Shown here in pieces: positions 30,794 through 37,512 of a DNA stretch of 51,926 bases. The translations under genes and the position numbers were made by a program. Source of the DNA: a virus; the IMG/VR virus record IMGVR_UViG_3300031949_000054, positions 1-51,926 of that record. One strand, given 5' to 3'. The notes under the pieces are model-generated. The model made no database searches and was not told the origin of the DNA. It saw only the letters and a list, made by a program, of their open reading frames with translations. Numbering within the stretch: the stretch's first letter is position 1; every line of letters starts with the position of its first letter.

Positions 30794-31066
30794 ATGCAAG
30801 CGATCGCACGCGTATTCGTTTCCGAACACCGCAAGCCCGTACCGTTCGCCCTCGTGTTTGTTGCCGTCTTTTGTACCACGACCGGGTTCCTCATCGGGGA
30901 CTGGACCGCCGAGCCGCGCTTCGCCGAGCGGGAGGATTCGCTCAAGAGCTACGTCGCCGGGGTCCGGGACGACGTCGAGCGCTTGCGCGACTCGCTCAAG
31001 GCCGGCTGCTACCAGTTCATCGATCCGACCAAGCCGCGCAGTTCCACCTTTGCCACCACCATGTAG
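30794..31066 (+). CDS. Small membrane protein
   Basis: ATG 30794 lies 5 nt after AAGGAGG. It has one hydrophobic helix (PFALVFVAVFCTTTGFLIG). The upstream part of the track ORF 30473..31066 was rejected. Confidence 0.55.
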   Translation: MQAIARVFVSEHRKPVPFALVFVAVFCTTTGFLIGDWTAEPRFAEREDSLKSYVAGVRDDVERLRDSLKAGCYQFIDPTKPRSSTFATTM

Positions 31067-31080
31067 AAGGAGGCCGCAAG

Positions 31081-31326
31081 ATGACCACCGAGTTCACCCT
31101 CACCGATAAGGCCCTGCTCATGCGCGCCGCGCGCGAGTTCGACGCTCGAGCGCAGGCGCTCTACGACTCCCACGGGGGCCTGTGGAACGCCTCCCAGAAG
31201 AAGTGGGCCGAGGACAAGCGCGAGCACGATCGGCTACGCCGCGATGCTCACGATCTGCGCACGTTGGCGAAGCGATTGTCGGCGCCGATCAACGCGCTCG
31301 AAATCCACCGGCAGGGGAAGCCATGA
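31081..31326 (+). CDS. Hypothetical protein
   Basis: ATG 31081 lies 7 nt after GAAGGAGG. 81 aa, helical. Confidence 0.55.
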   Translation: MTTEFTLTDKALLMRAAREFDARAQALYDSHGGLWNASQKKWAEDKREHDRLRRDAHDLRTLAKRLSAPINALEIHRQGKP

Positions 31327-31637
31327 AGGGCATCTTCTCCCCCGCGCAGCGGAAGATCCTCTATCGGCTCCGCGAGGAAGGCGGGGTGATCGAGCGCCGG
31401 CGCGGGAACCTCGGCGCGCGGTACTGGAACAACTACTGGACGGGGGTCGGGCAGCCCGCCTTTCCGGCCTGGTACGCGCAGGGGCACACGATCAAGTCCC
31501 TGGTCGCCCACGGGGCGCTCGTGGTGCTCGCCTCCGACAAGGATGGCCTGGTGCGCTGCAGGCTCTCCGATGCGCTCCGCGCCGCGCCCTCGGTCCCGAT
31601 CGGCCCCGCGGCGAGGGCGGTGTCCGCCCATGGCTGA
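31323..31637 (+). CDS. Hypothetical protein
   Basis: ATG 31323 forms an ATGA overlap with the previous stop. 104 aa. Confidence 0.55.
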   Translation: MKGIFSPAQRKILYRLREEGGVIERRRGNLGARYWNNYWTGVGQPAFPAWYAQGHTIKSLVAHGALVVLASDKDGLVRCRLSDALRAAPSVPIGPAARAVSAHG

Positions 31638-32781
31638 AGAGCACCTGCGGATCCAGCGCGCGGAGCGCCGCCAGGCGCGGCTGCGCCTGGCGGTGTCCGC
31701 CGCTTCCAACGGCGGGAAGACCTGGACCTCCATTGAGCTCGCCTTCGGGATCGTAGAGGAGCTCCTCACCCGCGGCGTGCTCGCGGGCACCCTCGAGGGC
31801 AAGGTCGGGGTGGTGGACACCGAGCGCAAATCCGCGCAGCTCTACGCCCACCTGGGTCCCTACGACACGGTGGACCTCGGGCCCCCGTACACGGTCGCCC
31901 GCTACGTCCAGGCTCTGGCGCTCCTTGAGCGCGCGGGGTGCGCGGTCATCATCCTCGATGGGATCTCGCACGCCTGGGAGGGTGCGGGCGGGGTGCTCGC
32001 GCTCCTCGATTCCTTTGAAGCCGGTCAGAAGTTCTCCGCCTTCGGGACGACGGTCAAGCCCGCGCAGAATGAATTCGTCGACGCGATGCTGCGCTCGCCC
32101 TGTCACATCATCGCGACCATGCGCTCGAAGACCGCCTGGGTCCTGGAGGACCAGGAAAAGCGCACAAGCTCGGGCGGAGTGCGCACGGTCAAGGCGCCGC
32201 GGCGAATCGGCATGGCCCCCATCCAGCGCCCGGGGATCGAGTACGAGTTCACCACCATGGTGGACCTGGATACCGACACCCACCAGGCACGGGTGCTCAA
32301 GAACCGGTGCCCGGTGTTCGCCGACTGGGTCCCGAAGGTGCTCACCCGGGAGCACGGGCGGCGCCTCGCCGCCTGGCTCCTGGAGGGAGCGCCCGCGCCG
32401 GCCGAGCCCGTTTCGGGGTCGCCGCTGGAAAGGGCTCAGGCTGTGCACGCAGCGGGCCTGCGCGCCTTCGAGCGGGCGCAGACGTTGCCTGACCTCGCGG
32501 TCGCCTTCGAGAGCGCCCAGCGCGATCTGAGGGCGTTCCCGCCTGCCGTGGCGGTGGAGGCCATCAGCCCCATGCTCGAGAGCCTGGTCACCGCCAAGGA
32601 TGCCCGCAAAGCAGCCCTGAGACCCAAGCTCGGGGCAGTCGGGGACCTGCCGGCGGGATCCGGGCGGCAGGCGGTGGTCGAGCCGGGTCCGAAGCAGGTG
32701 CTCGACCGGACGATCGAGAAGATCGCGCGCGAGCGCGGCGGCTTGCCTTTCTCCGAAATGAAAGACGACGTTCCCTGGTAG
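31630..32781 (+). CDS. Sak4-like / AAA_24-type RecA-fold ATPase (recombination/annealing helper)
   Basis: Start at MAEEHLRIQ (ATG 31630). Walker A-like SAASNGGKTWT and Walker B-like AVIILDGISHAW. Confidence 0.7.
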   Translation: MAEEHLRIQRAERRQARLRLAVSAASNGGKTWTSIELAFGIVEELLTRGVLAGTLEGKVGVVDTERKSAQLYAHLGPYDTVDLGPPYTVARYVQALALLERAGCAVIILDGISHAWEGAGGVLALLDSFEAGQKFSAFGTTVKPAQNEFVDAMLRSPCHIIATMRSKTAWVLEDQEKRTSSGGVRTVKAPRRIGMAPIQRPGIEYEFTTMVDLDTDTHQARVLKNRCPVFADWVPKVLTREHGRRLAAWLLEGAPAPAEPVSGSPLERAQAVHAAGLRAFERAQTLPDLAVAFESAQRDLRAFPPAVAVEAISPMLESLVTAKDARKAALRPKLGAVGDLPAGSGRQAVVEPGPKQVLDRTIEKIARERGGLPFSEMKDDVPW

Positions 32782-32795
32782 AAGGAGTTATCCAC

Positions 32796-33302
32796 ATGCA
32801 GTTTGAACTCGACGGGGCGAAGGTGCTCCTGGTTCACAAGAACGAGCGGCTGGAGAAGCACGGCGAGGAGGAAGTCCTGGCGTGCGATTTGGATTTCAAG
32901 TACGAGACCTCGAACGCGGTGCTCGCGGAGTTCCACCCGGATCTGCGCTCGCAGCTCTACAAGCGCCCGGAGAGCGCCCAGGGTGAGCTCACCGATGACC
33001 TGGAGCACCTTACCGCGCTTCGCGTCCCCGAGCTCGGGAGCGACTTCAAGTTCGCGGGCAGCCTGGAGCGTGCGGAGCTCGTGTTCTTCAAGGGCAAAAA
33101 GGCCCACGTGACCTTCGCTGAGGCGAAGATCCACAAGTTCTCCTTCAACCTGAAGGAGGGCGGGACGGTCATCGTCGGCTTCCAGGCGCAGGTGTACCCG
33201 GATGAGGGGCAATCCGGGAAGCTCTCCGGACTCCTGCAGGAGAAGCACTGCCTGCTGACCCTTGAGCCTGCGGAGGACTCCCAGCGCCCTTTGGCAAGCT
33301 GA
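32796..33302 (+). CDS. Hypothetical protein
   Basis: 168-aa ORF with AAGGAG upstream. No motif recognised. Confidence 0.6.
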   Translation: MQFELDGAKVLLVHKNERLEKHGEEEVLACDLDFKYETSNAVLAEFHPDLRSQLYKRPESAQGELTDDLEHLTALRVPELGSDFKFAGSLERAELVFFKGKKAHVTFAEAKIHKFSFNLKEGGTVIVGFQAQVYPDEGQSGKLSGLLQEKHCLLTLEPAEDSQRPLAS

Positions 33303-33330
33303 CCCGCGTCGTCCTGGATCCGGAGGCGGC

Positions 33331-33540
33331 GTGGCCCTTTCCCAAGAAGTAGCGGCGGTCTCGATCGAGGATCAGATCGCCTGCGTGGAGCGCGAGCTGC
33401 GGTTTCGCGAGCGGGTGTACCCGCGTTGGGTCGCCGATCATAAGCTCCTGCAGGTGACGGCGGATATCGAGATGTCGCGGATGCGAGCGGTGCTCTTGAC
33501 GCTGCAGCTCGAGCGCGTCGCCCCAGCCGGCGAGCGGTGA
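33331..33540 (+). CDS. Hypothetical protein
   Basis: GTG 33331 lies 4 nt after GGAGG. 69 aa (..CVERELRFRERVYPRWV..MRAVLLTLQ). Confidence 0.5.
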   Translation: MALSQEVAAVSIEDQIACVERELRFRERVYPRWVADHKLLQVTADIEMSRMRAVLLTLQLERVAPAGER

Positions 33541-33547
33541 TGTTCGT

Positions 33548-33811
33548 ATGACTACCGCCTATCCCCTGCAGTGGCCGCCCGGCTGGCCGCGCACGCCCTC
33601 GGATAAGCGGGAGCGCTCGCGCTTTGACACCAGTGTGTCGAAGGCGCTTGGCTTTCTCCACGAGGAGGTGCGGCGGCTCGGGGCGAAGTCCCTCGTCATC
33701 TCGAGCAACTATACCCTCGGGCCTGCTCCGGAGGATTCCGGGGTGTGTGCCTATTTCGAGTTGGGAATTATATACTTGACTCCCACAGCGGAATCAGTGG
33801 GTTATGAGTAG
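33548..33811 (+). pseudogene. 5' fragment of a J-domain protein gene, interrupted by the methyltransferase cassette
   Basis: MTTAYPLQWPPGWPRT..SGVCAYFE is followed by 16 element-encoded codons and then TAG. The frame matches the 3' fragment once the element and one TSD copy are removed. Confidence 0.7.
33763..33788. repeat. Left terminal inverted repeat GGGAATTATATACTTGACTCCCACAG
   Basis: Read directly. Its partner is at 34895-34920. Confidence 0.9.
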
Positions 33812-34907
33812 CCGAGTCATCATCGGCGACTGCCGCGCTGTGCTGCCGACATTGGAAGCCGGGAGCGTGCAAACGTGCGTCACGTCGCCGCCCTACTGGG
33901 GACTGCGCGACTACGGGCACGCCGGGCAGATCGGGCTTGAATCGACGCCAGCCGAGTACGTCGCCGAAATGGTTACCGTGTTCCGGGAAGTGCGCCGCGT
34001 GCTGCGCGATGACGGGACGCTGTGGCTGAACCTTGGCGACAGCTACGCCAGTAGCGGCGGTGCCACGCCCGGCAAGAGAAGCGAAGGGATCGGACAGGCC
34101 GAAGTAGGCGAAGGACTGCGCCGCCCGACACGCAAGGGCTCTGGACGCGCTGACGGCATTGTGACCGGAGAAAGCCCAAGGAACCGCGACGGCGCACCGC
34201 CTTGCGATCTGCCTGCGAAGAACCTTGTTGGCATCCCGTGGCGCGTGGCCTTCGCCCTGCAAGCGGACGGCTGGTATCTCCGGCAGGACATCATCTGGGC
34301 GAAGCCGAACCCGATGCCGGAGAGCGTGCGCGACCGCTGCACGAAGTCGCACGAGTACCTGTTCCTGCTGGCGAAGTCGGAGCGGTATTACTTCGATCAG
34401 GACGCCATCCTTGAGCCCGTAGCGGCTGCCAGCGTGGCGCGGCTGTCTCAACCCACGCTAGGCGAGCAAGAGGGCTCTGACCGCGTTCCTGGCAAGACCA
34501 ACGGCAACATGAAAGCCGTGTCGCGCAGCGGGAACAAGGAACGGAAACCGGCGCGCGCGCGCGGGGTGCCCGTGGACACGAACGGCGAGACGAATGGAGC
34601 CGTTGCAGGGTCGGTCCCGTGGGAAGGCTCGGAGCGCAACAAGCGCAGCGTCTGGACCGTCACCACCCAGCCGTTCAAGGGAGCCCACTTCGCCACCTTC
34701 CCGCCCGCGCTGATCGAGCCCTGCATCTTGGCAGGCAGCAAGCCCGGCGACATCGTGCTTGACCCGTTTGGGGGCAGCGGCACTACAGGGCAAGTGAGCG
34801 AGGCGCTAGGCAGGAAGTGGCTGTTGATCGAACTGAACGGCGAATACGCGAATCTGTGCGCCGACCGAACCCGGCAGACCGGCATGGAGCTGGCCTGTGG
34901 GAGTTAA
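33804..34907 (+). CDS. Beta-class DNA methyltransferase, SPPY type (N4-cytosine suggested)
   Basis: 367-aa ORF. Motif IV VTSPPYWGLRDY near the N-terminus, IIWAKPNPMPES, and motif I LDPFGGSGTT near the C-terminus. The stop lies inside the right IR. Confidence 0.9.
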   Translation: MSSRVIIGDCRAVLPTLEAGSVQTCVTSPPYWGLRDYGHAGQIGLESTPAEYVAEMVTVFREVRRVLRDDGTLWLNLGDSYASSGGATPGKRSEGIGQAEVGEGLRRPTRKGSGRADGIVTGESPRNRDGAPPCDLPAKNLVGIPWRVAFALQADGWYLRQDIIWAKPNPMPESVRDRCTKSHEYLFLLAKSERYYFDQDAILEPVAAASVARLSQPTLGEQEGSDRVPGKTNGNMKAVSRSGNKERKPARARGVPVDTNGETNGAVAGSVPWEGSERNKRSVWTVTTQPFKGAHFATFPPALIEPCILAGSKPGDIVLDPFGGSGTTGQVSEALGRKWLLIELNGEYANLCADRTRQTGMELACGS

Positions 34908-34920
34908 GTATATAAGTCCC
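34895..34920. repeat. Right terminal inverted repeat (reverse complement GGGACTTATATACTTAACTCCCACAG)
   Basis: Read directly. It has 2 mismatches to the left IR. Confidence 0.9.
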
Positions 34921-35268
34921 TTCGAGTTCGGGGGTTTGCGCGCGGCGATGCCCTGCGATCGCTGGACCAAGGTAGAGGATAACCTGCACTCCATCGCGAA
35001 GACGATCGAGGCGATGCGCGGCATTGAGCGCTGGGGCGCGAAGAACATGATCAAGGCGGCGTTCACCGGGTTTGTGGCGCTGCCGGCGGCCTCCAGACGC
35101 CACTGGCGCGAGGTGCTGGGCGTGACCGACGGGCAGGGATCGAGCCTCGAGTCGGCCTACAAGCGGCTGCGTTCCAAGCATCACCCTGACAAGGGTGGGA
35201 CGTCGGAGCGTTTCAACGAGGTCCAGGTCGCCTACGATCAAGCGCGCGCCGAGCTCGGAATCCCGTGA
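34897..35268 (+). pseudogene. 3' fragment of the interrupted gene, encoding the J domain (HPD motif); possibly still translated from a GTG inside the right IR
   Basis: ..FEFGGLRAAMPCDRW.. then LESAYKRLRSKHHPDKGGTSERFNEVQVAYDQA (J-domain helices II-III with HPD). GGAG lies 7 nt upstream of GTG 34897. Confidence 0.7.
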
Positions 35269-35411
35269 AGGATCCTACTCCGCGCTGGATGTGGCACCTG
35301 TGGGGCGTGGCCGGGGTGTTCGTCGCGCTCAACGGCAGATCGATTGTGCTCGGGGTCGTGCTCGTCGCGATCGCTGCCCTGGCGCTCGTGCTCAATGACT
35401 CCGATGGCTGA
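35265..35411 (+). CDS. Small two-helix membrane protein (48 aa)
   Basis: Below the ORF-track cutoff. GTG 35265 forms a GTGA overlap with the previous stop, and the stop overlaps the next ATG (ATGGCTGA). Translation: VKDPTPRWMWHLWGVAGVFVALNGRSIVLGVVLVAIAALALVLNDSDG. Confidence 0.35.
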   Translation: MKDPTPRWMWHLWGVAGVFVALNGRSIVLGVVLVAIAALALVLNDSDG

Positions 35412-36255
35412 GACGACCGGCATCGCCTGGACACGCTCGACGTTCAACCCGTGGATCGGCTGCACGAAGGTCGGACCTGGGTGCGACCACTGCTACGCCG
35501 AGACGCTGGATGCTCGCCACAAGTGGGGCGGGGTCGTGCATTGGGGTGCTGGCGTGTCGCGCTACCGCACGAGCGAGCACGCTTGGAAGCAACCGCTCGC
35601 GTGGGAGAAGAAGGCCGCGGCCGGCGACAAGCCCTGGCGCGTCTTCTGCGCTTCGCTCGCCGATGTGTTCGATAACGAAGTGCCGGAGGGTTGGCGTTTA
35701 GACCTTTACCACCTGATCGAGCGCACGCCGAATCTATCGTGGCTGCTCGTCACTAAGCGCATCGGGAATGTGGAGCGCATGGTGAAAGATTCGTGGTTCG
35801 GACACTACGGTTTCCCGCAGAACGTCCGCCTGCTCATCACCGTCTGCGACCAGGAGGAGGCCGACCGTGACATCCCGAAGCTGCTCGCGCTGCCGTGCAA
35901 GAACGGAGTTTCGTATGAACCTGCTTTGGGTCCAATCGATTGGTTGATCGCCATGAGCGGCGGCTGCGACAAGCACGGATACCGAAAGCCCCTACTCACA
36001 GATCGCAAGCTCGACTGGATCATCGTCGGCGGCGAGAGCACCCAGGGCGCAGGGAAGGCGCGGCCGTTCGTGTTGGGATGGGGTAAAGACACGATTCGCC
36101 AATGCCGCGCGGCTTCGGTGCCTGTGTTTTTCAAACAAGCCGGCAGCAACGCGACGAACCGGGAAGGCGTGCCACATCCGTTCAAGGATAGGGCCGGTGC
36201 AGATCCTTCTGAATGGCCGGATGAACTCCGAGCCCAAGAGTTTCCCGATGCGTGA
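35404..36255 (+). CDS. Phage Gp37/Gp68 family protein (DUF5131-like)
   Basis: Start at MAETTGIAWTRSTFNPWIGCTKVGPGCDHCYAE, the characteristic N-terminus of this family. 283 aa. Confidence 0.7.
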   Translation: MAETTGIAWTRSTFNPWIGCTKVGPGCDHCYAETLDARHKWGGVVHWGAGVSRYRTSEHAWKQPLAWEKKAAAGDKPWRVFCASLADVFDNEVPEGWRLDLYHLIERTPNLSWLLVTKRIGNVERMVKDSWFGHYGFPQNVRLLITVCDQEEADRDIPKLLALPCKNGVSYEPALGPIDWLIAMSGGCDKHGYRKPLLTDRKLDWIIVGGESTQGAGKARPFVLGWGKDTIRQCRAASVPVFFKQAGSNATNREGVPHPFKDRAGADPSEWPDELRAQEFPDA

Positions 36256-36700
36256 TCCCGCAAAAATCAAGGCCCGCAAGCAGCGGTATCTGGAGCGCCA
36301 GAAGGTGAAGAAGTACGGTCCTGGCGCTGCTGGCCAGGACATGCGCGGGCGGCACGGCAACCACGCCAAGGGCGAGAAGAACGCGCGCTGGAACGGCGGT
36401 CGCTGGCACCATCCTGACGGTTATATCGGCATTGCTGTTCCGGAAGGCCACCACCTGCGCCAAGCGCACGGCTATGCGTTCGAGCACCAACTCGTCGCAG
36501 AGGAAATGCTCGGGCGCCGCCTACGTGACGACGAGGATGTTCACCACAGGAACGGAAAGCGCGCCGACAACCGCCCGGATAACCTGGAGGTCAAGCTCAA
36601 GACCGACCATGCGCGGGAACACGCGAACGCCAGCGAACGTGACGCGCTCGGCCGCTTCGTCCCGGACAAACCGCGGCACGTGCAGGAGTTCCCGGCGTGA
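36248..36700 (+). CDS. HNH endonuclease
   Basis: Start at MRDPAKIK (ATG 36248, overlapping the previous stop). Contains ..DVHHRNGKRADNRPDNLEV..HAREH. Confidence 0.8.
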   Translation: MRDPAKIKARKQRYLERQKVKKYGPGAAGQDMRGRHGNHAKGEKNARWNGGRWHHPDGYIGIAVPEGHHLRQAHGYAFEHQLVAEEMLGRRLRDDEDVHHRNGKRADNRPDNLEVKLKTDHAREHANASERDALGRFVPDKPRHVQEFPA

Positions 36701-36937
36701 TGTGGATCCTGCTCGTGTGTTCCTTCCAGGCCTGCCAGATGGTGAGCAGCTTCGCGACGTTCGAGGCGTGCGAGGCGCAGCTCCTGATCGTAGAGTTTCC
36801 GGTCTACGCGATCTGCCAACCCGGTGAGGTTGTGTGAGTGTCCTCGCGAATCTGTGCTTCGTCCTCGGCACCACGCTTTTTCTGTGCGGTGCGGTGATCA
36901 ACCTCGGGGTGTCGCTCGGGTGGTGGGCGTGAGGCAC

Positions 36938-37312
36938 ATGTCCTTTATGCTCACGACTGAGCAGGTACGGACTGGCAGGAAAACCGTGACGCGCAGGATA
37001 GGATGGTTGCGTCTAACCGCTGGGGAGCGGCTCCTGGCGATCGAGAAAGGGCAGGGTCTACGCCTCGGCGAGCGCGTCGTCCCGATCCGACCTATCAGGG
37101 TGCTCTCCGTCCGGAGGGAGCCTTTGAACAGGATGTTGAAAGATGAGGTCTACGGCCTGGAGGAATGCGCGCTCGAGGGATTCTGGGAGATCACGCCCTC
37201 GGAGTTCGTGAAGCGGTTCTGCGCGAGTCACCGGTGCGACGAAGTAGCAACCGTGACTCGTGTCGAGTTCGACTACGATGTTCCTGCGGGCTGGGTTCAA
37301 CCGCCGGTTTAA
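36938..37312 (+). CDS. ASCH domain protein
   Basis: Start at MSFMLTTEQVRTGRKTVTRR. 124 aa, with an ASCH-like GxKTxTRR N-terminus. Confidence 0.65.
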   Translation: MSFMLTTEQVRTGRKTVTRRIGWLRLTAGERLLAIEKGQGLRLGERVVPIRPIRVLSVRREPLNRMLKDEVYGLEECALEGFWEITPSEFVKRFCASHRCDEVATVTRVEFDYDVPAGWVQPPV

Positions 37313-37512
37313 GGCGCTCTGCATGGCTCGCGCGGTGCGCGGCGGGCGGGTGGGGTGGGTCTTTCTTGTGCGTTTCCAGGCGGGCGATCTTGCATGGCTC
37401 GGCTTTAATCGGGTGGGGTGGAACCCGCCCAATATCCTGAATCTGATCGATCCATGCCTGCCGCCCTCGATGCCCTATTCTGTGTGGCCGCGCGTGGCTC
37501 AGGGGCGCTCTG

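Follow-up and report, generated by a model that had tools for sequence, protein, structure and literature searches.

The 51,926-bp stretch of viral DNA analysed here (the window; IMG/VR record IMGVR_UViG_3300031949_000054) is a complete virus record with direct terminal repeats, and one of its genes, encoding a J-domain protein, is interrupted by a 1,158-bp DNA methyltransferase cassette (33763-34920). Judged from its sequence and that of its relatives, the cassette is most plausibly a member of a subfamily with a built-in translational relay that resembles an engineered non-polar cassette. The left end closes all three incoming reading frames around the start codon of the methyltransferase gene, and the right end offers a fresh start codon near the stop of that gene, in the one frame that is open through the terminal repeat. 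Ribosomes translating the interrupted (host) gene may in this way be handed to the cargo and then returned to the host message.

The cassette is bounded by 26-nucleotide (nt) inverted repeats at 33763-33788 and 34895-34920, which are complementary at 24 of 26 positions, and is flanked by a perfect 8-bp target-site duplication, TTCGAGTT (33755-33762 and 34921-34928); repeats and duplications are unstranded, and the cassette and all open reading frames (ORFs) and signals described here lie on the plus strand. The terminal repeat is present just twice in the window, with no occurrence expected by chance. The sole ORF of the cassette (33804-34907) encodes a 367-residue orphan N4/N6 DNA methyltransferase with the motif TSPPYW (PF01555, E=4e-51; phrog_67), and its TAA stop (34905-34907) falls within the right repeat. 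The 5' fragment of the J-domain gene (33548-33811, 87 residues) extends 16 codons beyond its native sequence, being composed of 71 native codons, a junction codon and 15 cassette codons (GIIYLTPTAESVGYE), and terminates at a TAG (33809-33811) located 5 nt past the methylase ATG at 33804 (ATGAGTAG, 33804-33811). At the opposite end a Shine-Dalgarno (SD)-like GGAG (34886-34889), which is kept in sister cassettes, is followed after a 7-nt gap by a GTG (34897) in the right repeat. This GTG precedes the methylase TAA at 34905 by 8 nt and is the first start codon of a 123-residue ORF (34897-35268) that reopens the original gene frame and consists of 8 cassette codons (VGVKYISP) and 115 native codons with the HPD motif. 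Stops and starts that overlap or are spaced by a few nt are the mark of translational coupling, and they are found at both entry and exit of the window cassette and likewise in all family members. A first-pass annotation of 33548-35268 had described three ORFs overlapping in series; reading the sequence again base by base agrees with its coordinates and ORF layout, and the serial overlap is real.

When the cassette and one copy of the duplication are removed in silico, a single 184-residue ORF with KRLRSKHHPDKGG results, and both pieces match one family, phrog_9210, the 5' piece covering profile positions 6-80 and the 3' piece 86-202. Neither piece carries further stops or frameshifts, there are 348 homologues at E<1e-10, and intact orthologues of 183-188 residues share 78-83% identity with the 3' piece. 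The HPD motif lies in KHHPDKGG; PF00226 scores 26.0 bits on the fragment against a cut-off of 27.8, the homologues have PF00226, and the J-domain fold of the AlphaFold2 model of the orthologue P0002 matches solved J domains with a probability of 0.98-1.0. In the relative L200 the target is uninterrupted and TTCGAGTT is present once. Decay of the gene among relatives, which the first-pass annotation had named as a sign against its reading, is not what is seen, as the closest orthologues are intact except for a 1-nt frameshift in L200. In L200 (2857-3348), the closest empty-site relative, one extra C (CCCC vs CCC) 24 nt downstream of the target throws the J-domain portion out of frame; as P0003 represents this gene unshifted, the extra C is either an assembly error or a rare variant. 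Four homologues of the 3' fragment (P0029, P0051, P0054 and P0075; 108-120 residues) begin near the start of the 3' fragment of the window (MVAYF.., MSFACDRW..), and could be truncated gene calls or independent splits of the same gene.

The ends of the cassette place it among IS1595-family insertion sequences (IS). IMG/VR contigs contain its terminal sequence GGGAATTATATACTTGACTCC very often, in more than 120 stretches, and pairs of it delimit 76 elements of 222-3,509 bp with perfect AT-rich 8-bp duplications in 55 of the 76. Many of the elements flanked by GGGAATTATATACTTGACTCC contain an ORF of about 305 residues with IS1595 DDE and zinc-ribbon domains (PF12762 and PF12760), often beside passenger genes. 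The repeats of the window cassette are identical to those of these transposase-encoding elements and it too has an 8-bp duplication, while the transposase domain PF12762 is found nowhere in the whole 51.9-kb window genome. The cassette is therefore classed, on sequence, as a non-autonomous, transposase-less derivative of the IS1595 family, whose transposons are common among environmental phages; it is a mobile insertion cassette or a transporter IS without transposase, and the many insertion sites of its kind suggest that it is mobilised in trans. An integron gene cassette was considered and rejected, as the 26-nt inverted repeats and 8-bp duplication are typical of DDE transposition and no integron feature is present; the likeness to an integron cassette is one of working, not of kinship. 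The duplications of 69 unique sites of the subfamily follow the palindromic consensus nWWnnWWn, with A/T at positions 2 and 7 in 68/69 and at positions 3 and 6 in 61/69. Several cassettes are inserted in the AT-rich core of the repeat of another element (L142, L074).

The subfamily is defined by its leader. A leader-specific pattern, which demanded TTATGA, retrieves 12 viral and 74 metagenome loci representing the 69 unique insertion sites and 48 complete copies; duplications are perfect at 23 of the unique sites and not at 16, the copies without them probably being nested or recombined elements. A search of a phage database returned no copy of the element, giving ordinary methylase homologues only, and the leader pattern has just two chance hits in 185,579 prokaryote genomes, both without the repeats. 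The cassette subfamily has been seen in no contigs other than those of phages and metagenomes. Common to all copies is the leader ...TTGACTCC-N8-AATCAG-NGNN-TTATGA, which in the window occupies 33789-33811 and terminates in TTATGAGTAG. A TGA overlapping the cargo ATG stops entry frame 0. Entry frame 1, in which the window cassette is entered, stops 5-8 nt past the ATG, in the variants ATGAGTAG, ATGAATAG, ATGAATGA, ATGAGCCTTAA and ATGAACGTTAG. The cargo frame itself is shut by the TGA of TTGACT 27 nt upstream of the ATG, which in the window lies in the left repeat (33777-33779). The leader contains no SD motif ahead of the cargo ATG, and a scan of 31000-37500 detected no sigma-70-like promoter.

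Behind this leader stand six unrelated families of DNA-modification cargo, namely N6_N4, D12 and C5 methylases, a PAPS-reductase-like protein, Mom and one unknown. A self-trained 3-periodic coding model places the cassettes in the orientation of their flanking genes at 49 sites and in the opposite one at 6, with 3 mixed cases. Two other ways of calling the flanking genes were dropped: choosing the longest ORF gave false labels to GC-rich antisense ORFs, and scoring by amino-acid composition preferred a spurious antisense ORF to a real one. The cargos also vary within families. The D12-class (Dam-like) cassettes L131, L133, L160, L002 and L173 have sizes of 973, 1,021, 1,069 and 1,117 bp, and these 48-bp steps arise because the copy number of an in-frame 16-residue repeat (GxIPHASDAGxGVQAI) in the cargo varies. 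L159:124-1227 and L186:124-1369 share one insertion site, with the same flanks and the same duplication, CTATCAAT, and hold two different cassettes, one of 1,104 bp with a window-type methylase and one of 1,246 bp with another N6_N4 methylase, suggesting either that cassettes recombined and so replaced the cargo or that a single hot spot was used repeatedly.

The absence of a promoter and an SD motif raises the question of how the cargo is expressed. The methylase could start alone, by SD-independent initiation, which exists in bacteria, or through a weak promoter built on the TTGACT of the left repeat, in which case the nearby stops would be irrelevant. TTGACT is a perfect -35-like box, and in transposase-bearing relatives it is followed 17 nt downstream by -10 boxes resembling TAGATT or TAGTTA. 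In the methylase-leader subfamily, however, the -10 position reads GGGTTA or GGTTAT, no promoter-like site emerged from the scan, a transcript from TTGACT would begin at or past the ATG, and the 49:6 co-orientation points to reliance on host transcription, so that independent expression seems rather improbable. In the transposase-bearing relatives (L037, L043, L064 and L012 among them) the arrangement looks like a promoter with the repeat itself as its -35 box, and the methylase-leader subfamily has lost the -10 box. The view of the first-pass annotation that the element uses host-gene translation for its cargo fits the promoterless, SD-less cargo and the orientation bias.

The right end supplies the second half of the relay. 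The right repeat has a single open outward frame (GTG GGA GTT AAG TAT ATA AGT CCC in the window) that ends at the last base of the element. Grouped by how far the cargo stop lies from the element end, the right ends form seven classes, and the 13-nt class comprises two unrelated contexts (N6_N4 and C5 cargos), giving eight designs. All eight have an ATG or GTG in the exit frame between -8 and +4 nt from the cargo stop, in the forms ATGA, GTGA, TGATG, TAATG and TGATATG or, as in the window, as a GTG within the repeat, and an SD-like motif is present 4-10 nt upstream of the exit start in 6/7 distance classes. The background density of a start with SD within the cargos is about 0.005 per nt. As controls serve the outward-reading ends of IS1595-type elements with the same repeats and other leaders, in which an exit-frame start is found at 10/51 and a start with SD at 6/51 (Fisher p=6e-5 and 1.4e-4). 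The first-pass annotation had left open whether the wiring is coincidence or adaptation and had proposed a comparison with other insertions of the element; that comparison reveals the wiring to be a conserved, built-in feature of the subfamily. It is thus not a coincidence of the locus, and adaptation is supported at the level of the family, although an in-frame exit is not universal.

Whether the exit ORF rejoins a host gene is a matter of phase. As the exit frame ends at the last base and is followed by the 8-bp duplication, the native frame returns only if the duplication begins at codon position 1, and entry is then in frame 1; this is the case in the window. For a co-oriented insertion the prior that the exit frame matches the 3' piece is 0.34 under a null built from the target position weight matrix (PWM) and 0.45 under an AT-count null. 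These nulls allow for the possibility that AT-rich target preference alone favours phase 0 in genes with high G+C at third codon positions (high-GC3 genes), and they leave the excess of in-phase insertions no more than suggestive. The in-frame exit in the window is accordingly about a one-in-three outcome, possibly enriched by selection. About 8/11 intragenic insertions are in phase (p ~0.01 with the PWM null, ~0.06 with the AT-count null). In L002 the cassette sits one codon past the ATG of a phrog_19005 gene, so that a 20-codon leader runs from the native start to the TAG, and the exit ORF keeps the frame of the entire gene and puts 11 extra residues on a protein that is complete in other respects. 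L165 has the cassette immediately 3' of an ATG, in phase, and the insertions in L003, L128 and L157 are also in phase, as are those in L005 and L151, which lie near the 3' end of a gene and whose exit ORF reaches the native stop overlapping the start of the next gene. L185 is out of phase (frame 0), as possibly are L177 and L173; L144 was dropped from the out-of-phase intragenic insertions, because its PHROG match suggests a gene start near or past the insertion point.

Many other copies are found at gene boundaries with the host ATG within the duplication (L052, L172), and in this type the left copy of the duplication drives a frame-0 leader to the ATGA, while the exit ORF ends at a TGA overlapping the retained host ATG. 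In L182:121-1977 two different methylase cassettes stand in tandem with one duplication copy, TTTTTTAT, between them and three copies in all. The 8-bp spacer leads from the exit frame 0 of the first cassette to the entry frame 1 of the second, an array-like, serial wiring.

Several points weigh against the proposed relay. The leader is one conserved sequence of single origin and TTATGA was required in the search, so its conservation at the entry is not independent replication, and the orientation bias depends on flanking genes called with a home-made periodic model. Relatedness among some right-end designs, such as A and C with their common GATGTTCGC-RTGA, makes them less independent. The cargo could have brought the SD and start at its end along from its former operon; such a legacy would not account for all designs using one open frame. 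Pairing of the two 26-nt repeats in the mRNA could hide the GTG. RNA folds around both junctions are no better than those of shuffled sequences (z = -1.1 and -1.5). The excess of phase-0 insertions is small and suggestive only, and an in-frame exit cannot be taken as a general rule, since many copies lie at gene boundaries or out of frame.

An alternative reading makes the whole arrangement a neutral by-product, in which the overlaps are accidents of a compact element, the SD and start are left over from the former operon of the cargo, and the J-domain gene is knocked out, its 3' piece untranslated or useless and its loss tolerated. Such a view is helped by the in-frame prior of 0.34-0.45, by the frequency with which NTGA overlaps arise by chance (about 20% of control ends), by the frameshift in the J gene of L200, by the many cassettes that are in frame with nothing and by the position of the cut, which falls within the N-terminal domain of the protein. 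It is nevertheless unlikely, because all right-end designs, serving six unrelated cargos, use one open exit frame, mostly with an SD, against 10/51 in the controls, the orientation bias is strong, and both gene pieces are free of further lesions in a family with 348 homologues whose closest orthologues are intact.

The first-pass annotation had gone further and suggested that the J domain might be restored as a separate polypeptide, and this part is not supported. The AlphaFold2 model of P0002 (predicted local distance difference test score, pLDDT, 91.8) comprises a beta-alpha-beta-beta-beta-alpha-alpha domain (residues 1-118), a flexible linker (about 120-130) and the J domain (132-180). The insertion point corresponds to residue 72/73, in the turn of the beta-hairpin formed by strands 3 and 4, inside the N-terminal domain. 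The 3' product is therefore half an N-terminal domain plus the J domain, rather than a clean J domain, and a restored J-protein function is doubtful; going by the model, function of the split protein would require reassembly of the fragments. The best Foldseek matches of the N-terminal domain of phrog_9210, taken from the orthologue model, are weak and are to the ribosome hibernation factors HPF/RaiA/pY (E 0.02-0.3, template modelling (TM) score about 0.3-0.45), which hints that the J protein may be ribosome- or RNA-binding.

A true rescue, with both fragments made and reassembled into a working J protein with the aid of tails encoded by the repeats, is very improbable. Both pieces are intact, the turn between beta3 and beta4 is a typical permissive split site, mobile-element-derived tails are essential in a split enzyme (PMC3045599), and the tails in question, GIIYLTPT... 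at the end of the 5' piece and VGVKYISP at the start of the 3' piece, are similar and beta-strand-like with the shared pattern hydrophobic-x-Y-[LI]-[TS]-P. These tails, however, are set by the transposase-binding repeat, whose internal symmetry accounts for their likeness, and most insertions of the family are not within genes. Functional rescue of the J protein is doubtful.

Taken together, the preferred reading of a translational relay can be set out as follows. A transposase acting in trans would move the cassette into an nWWnnWWn target, here in a phage J-domain gene, and the cargo, having neither promoter nor SD of its own, would rely on read-through transcription. The leader would shut all three incoming frames beside the cargo ATG, by one TGA at 27 nt upstream, by that of ATGA and by the TAG 5 nt downstream, and the DNA-modification gene would be translated by ribosomes that restart after finishing the host ORF. 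Where the cargo stops, an SD with ATG or GTG would open the sole frame through the right repeat and return ribosomes to the host message. In the window three serial products would be made, the 87-residue N-terminal fragment, the methylase, a probable safeguard of phage DNA against restriction, and the 123-residue C-terminal fragment with the J domain. The anatomy, the conservation across the family, the orientation bias and the intact orthologues are shown by the sequences, and actual reinitiation, its benefit and mobilisation in trans are inferred.

The genes that follow give such a relay a further role. As read from the sequence, a 48-residue ORF (35265-35411) starts at a GTG overlapping the J-gene stop (GTGA, 35265-35268), and the likely ATG of the next gene (35405) lies 4 nt upstream of its TGA (35409-35411). 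With a restart at 34897 and these overlapping downstream starts, the coupling chain of the operon would be kept and polarity limited. The main benefits are probably expression of the cargo and the absence of polarity on tightly coupled downstream genes, with J-protein rescue uncertain; for the restart at 34897, avoided polarity is a more likely benefit than rescue of the J protein. Extended to the family, the chances appear about even that a phage-restricted, IS1595-derived lineage acts as natural non-polar cassettes, which would carry anti-restriction genes into coupled operons and even into ORFs at minimal polarity, with in-phase host proteins, whole or split, still expressed and tandem copies wired in series through the 8-bp duplication.

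If this is true, the ends of a transposon would be under selection for translation as well as for transposase binding. Within operons, transposon insertions usually do damage and have polar effects, and the expectation is that few of them are tolerated in phage genomes. The cassette family appears to lower the cost of insertion through its own end sequence, which would help to explain the easy spread of anti-restriction genes among unrelated environmental phages, and it would provide a model from nature for insertion cassettes that are non-polar and express themselves.

Neither these phage cassettes nor their translational wiring turned up in searches of the literature. Known from earlier work are the IS1595 cassette class and the translational coupling of promoterless cassettes in integrons; what appears new, as far as descriptions were found, is a phage-restricted subfamily with a relay of entry stop and exit restart in the ends of a DDE cassette. 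The IS1595 transporter IS and mobile insertion cassettes (Siguier, Gagnevin & Chandler 2009; De Palmenaer et al. 2004, both as cited in PMC3129680) likewise share their inverted repeats with transposase-bearing copies, have 8-bp AT-rich duplications and passenger genes, lack a transposase and are presumed to be mobilised in trans. The subfamily in the window differs from them in its confinement, as far as found, to phage and metagenome contigs, its DNA-modification cargos, its SD-less leader closing all frames, and an outward-reading restart through the repeat where the cargo ends.

In class 1 integrons, cassettes are translated by coupling to ORF-11, ORF-17 or ORF-18 (PMC8876359; PMC11511950). 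Both kinds of cassette are promoterless and often without SD, and a short upstream ORF ending at or near the cassette start drives translation, or in the window would drive it, with upstream translation affecting downstream cassettes. In integrons, however, the coupling ORF is supplied by the platform (attI) and movement depends on an integrase and attC, whereas in the window the stops come from the end of the cassette, ribosomes would come from the interrupted host gene, and movement is by a DDE transposase with repeats and duplications. In phage Aeh1 the insertion of mobE in nrdA leaves both halves expressed, with element-derived tails that are essential for assembly of the split NrdA (PMC3045599). 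The window resembles Aeh1 in that a mobile gene within a phage ORF leaves two pieces with element-derived tails, translated separately in Aeh1 and predicted to be so in the window. It differs in that Aeh1 has a homing endonuclease and proven enzymatic reassembly, as opposed to a DDE-type cassette and a split J protein of doubtful function, and extending the parallel to the tails of the J protein is speculation.

A further likeness is to a man-made construct. The engineered non-polar aphA-3 cassette, reportedly designed by Menard, Sansonetti and Parsot in 1993, is said to have all three frames stopped before the marker is reached, and to restart the downstream part of the interrupted gene, if in frame, from an SD and start codon at its 3' end. 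That design has the same layout as the window cassette; that cassette was framed by design, whereas the one in the window is a natural transposon derivative whose frame match is set by the phase of its insertion.

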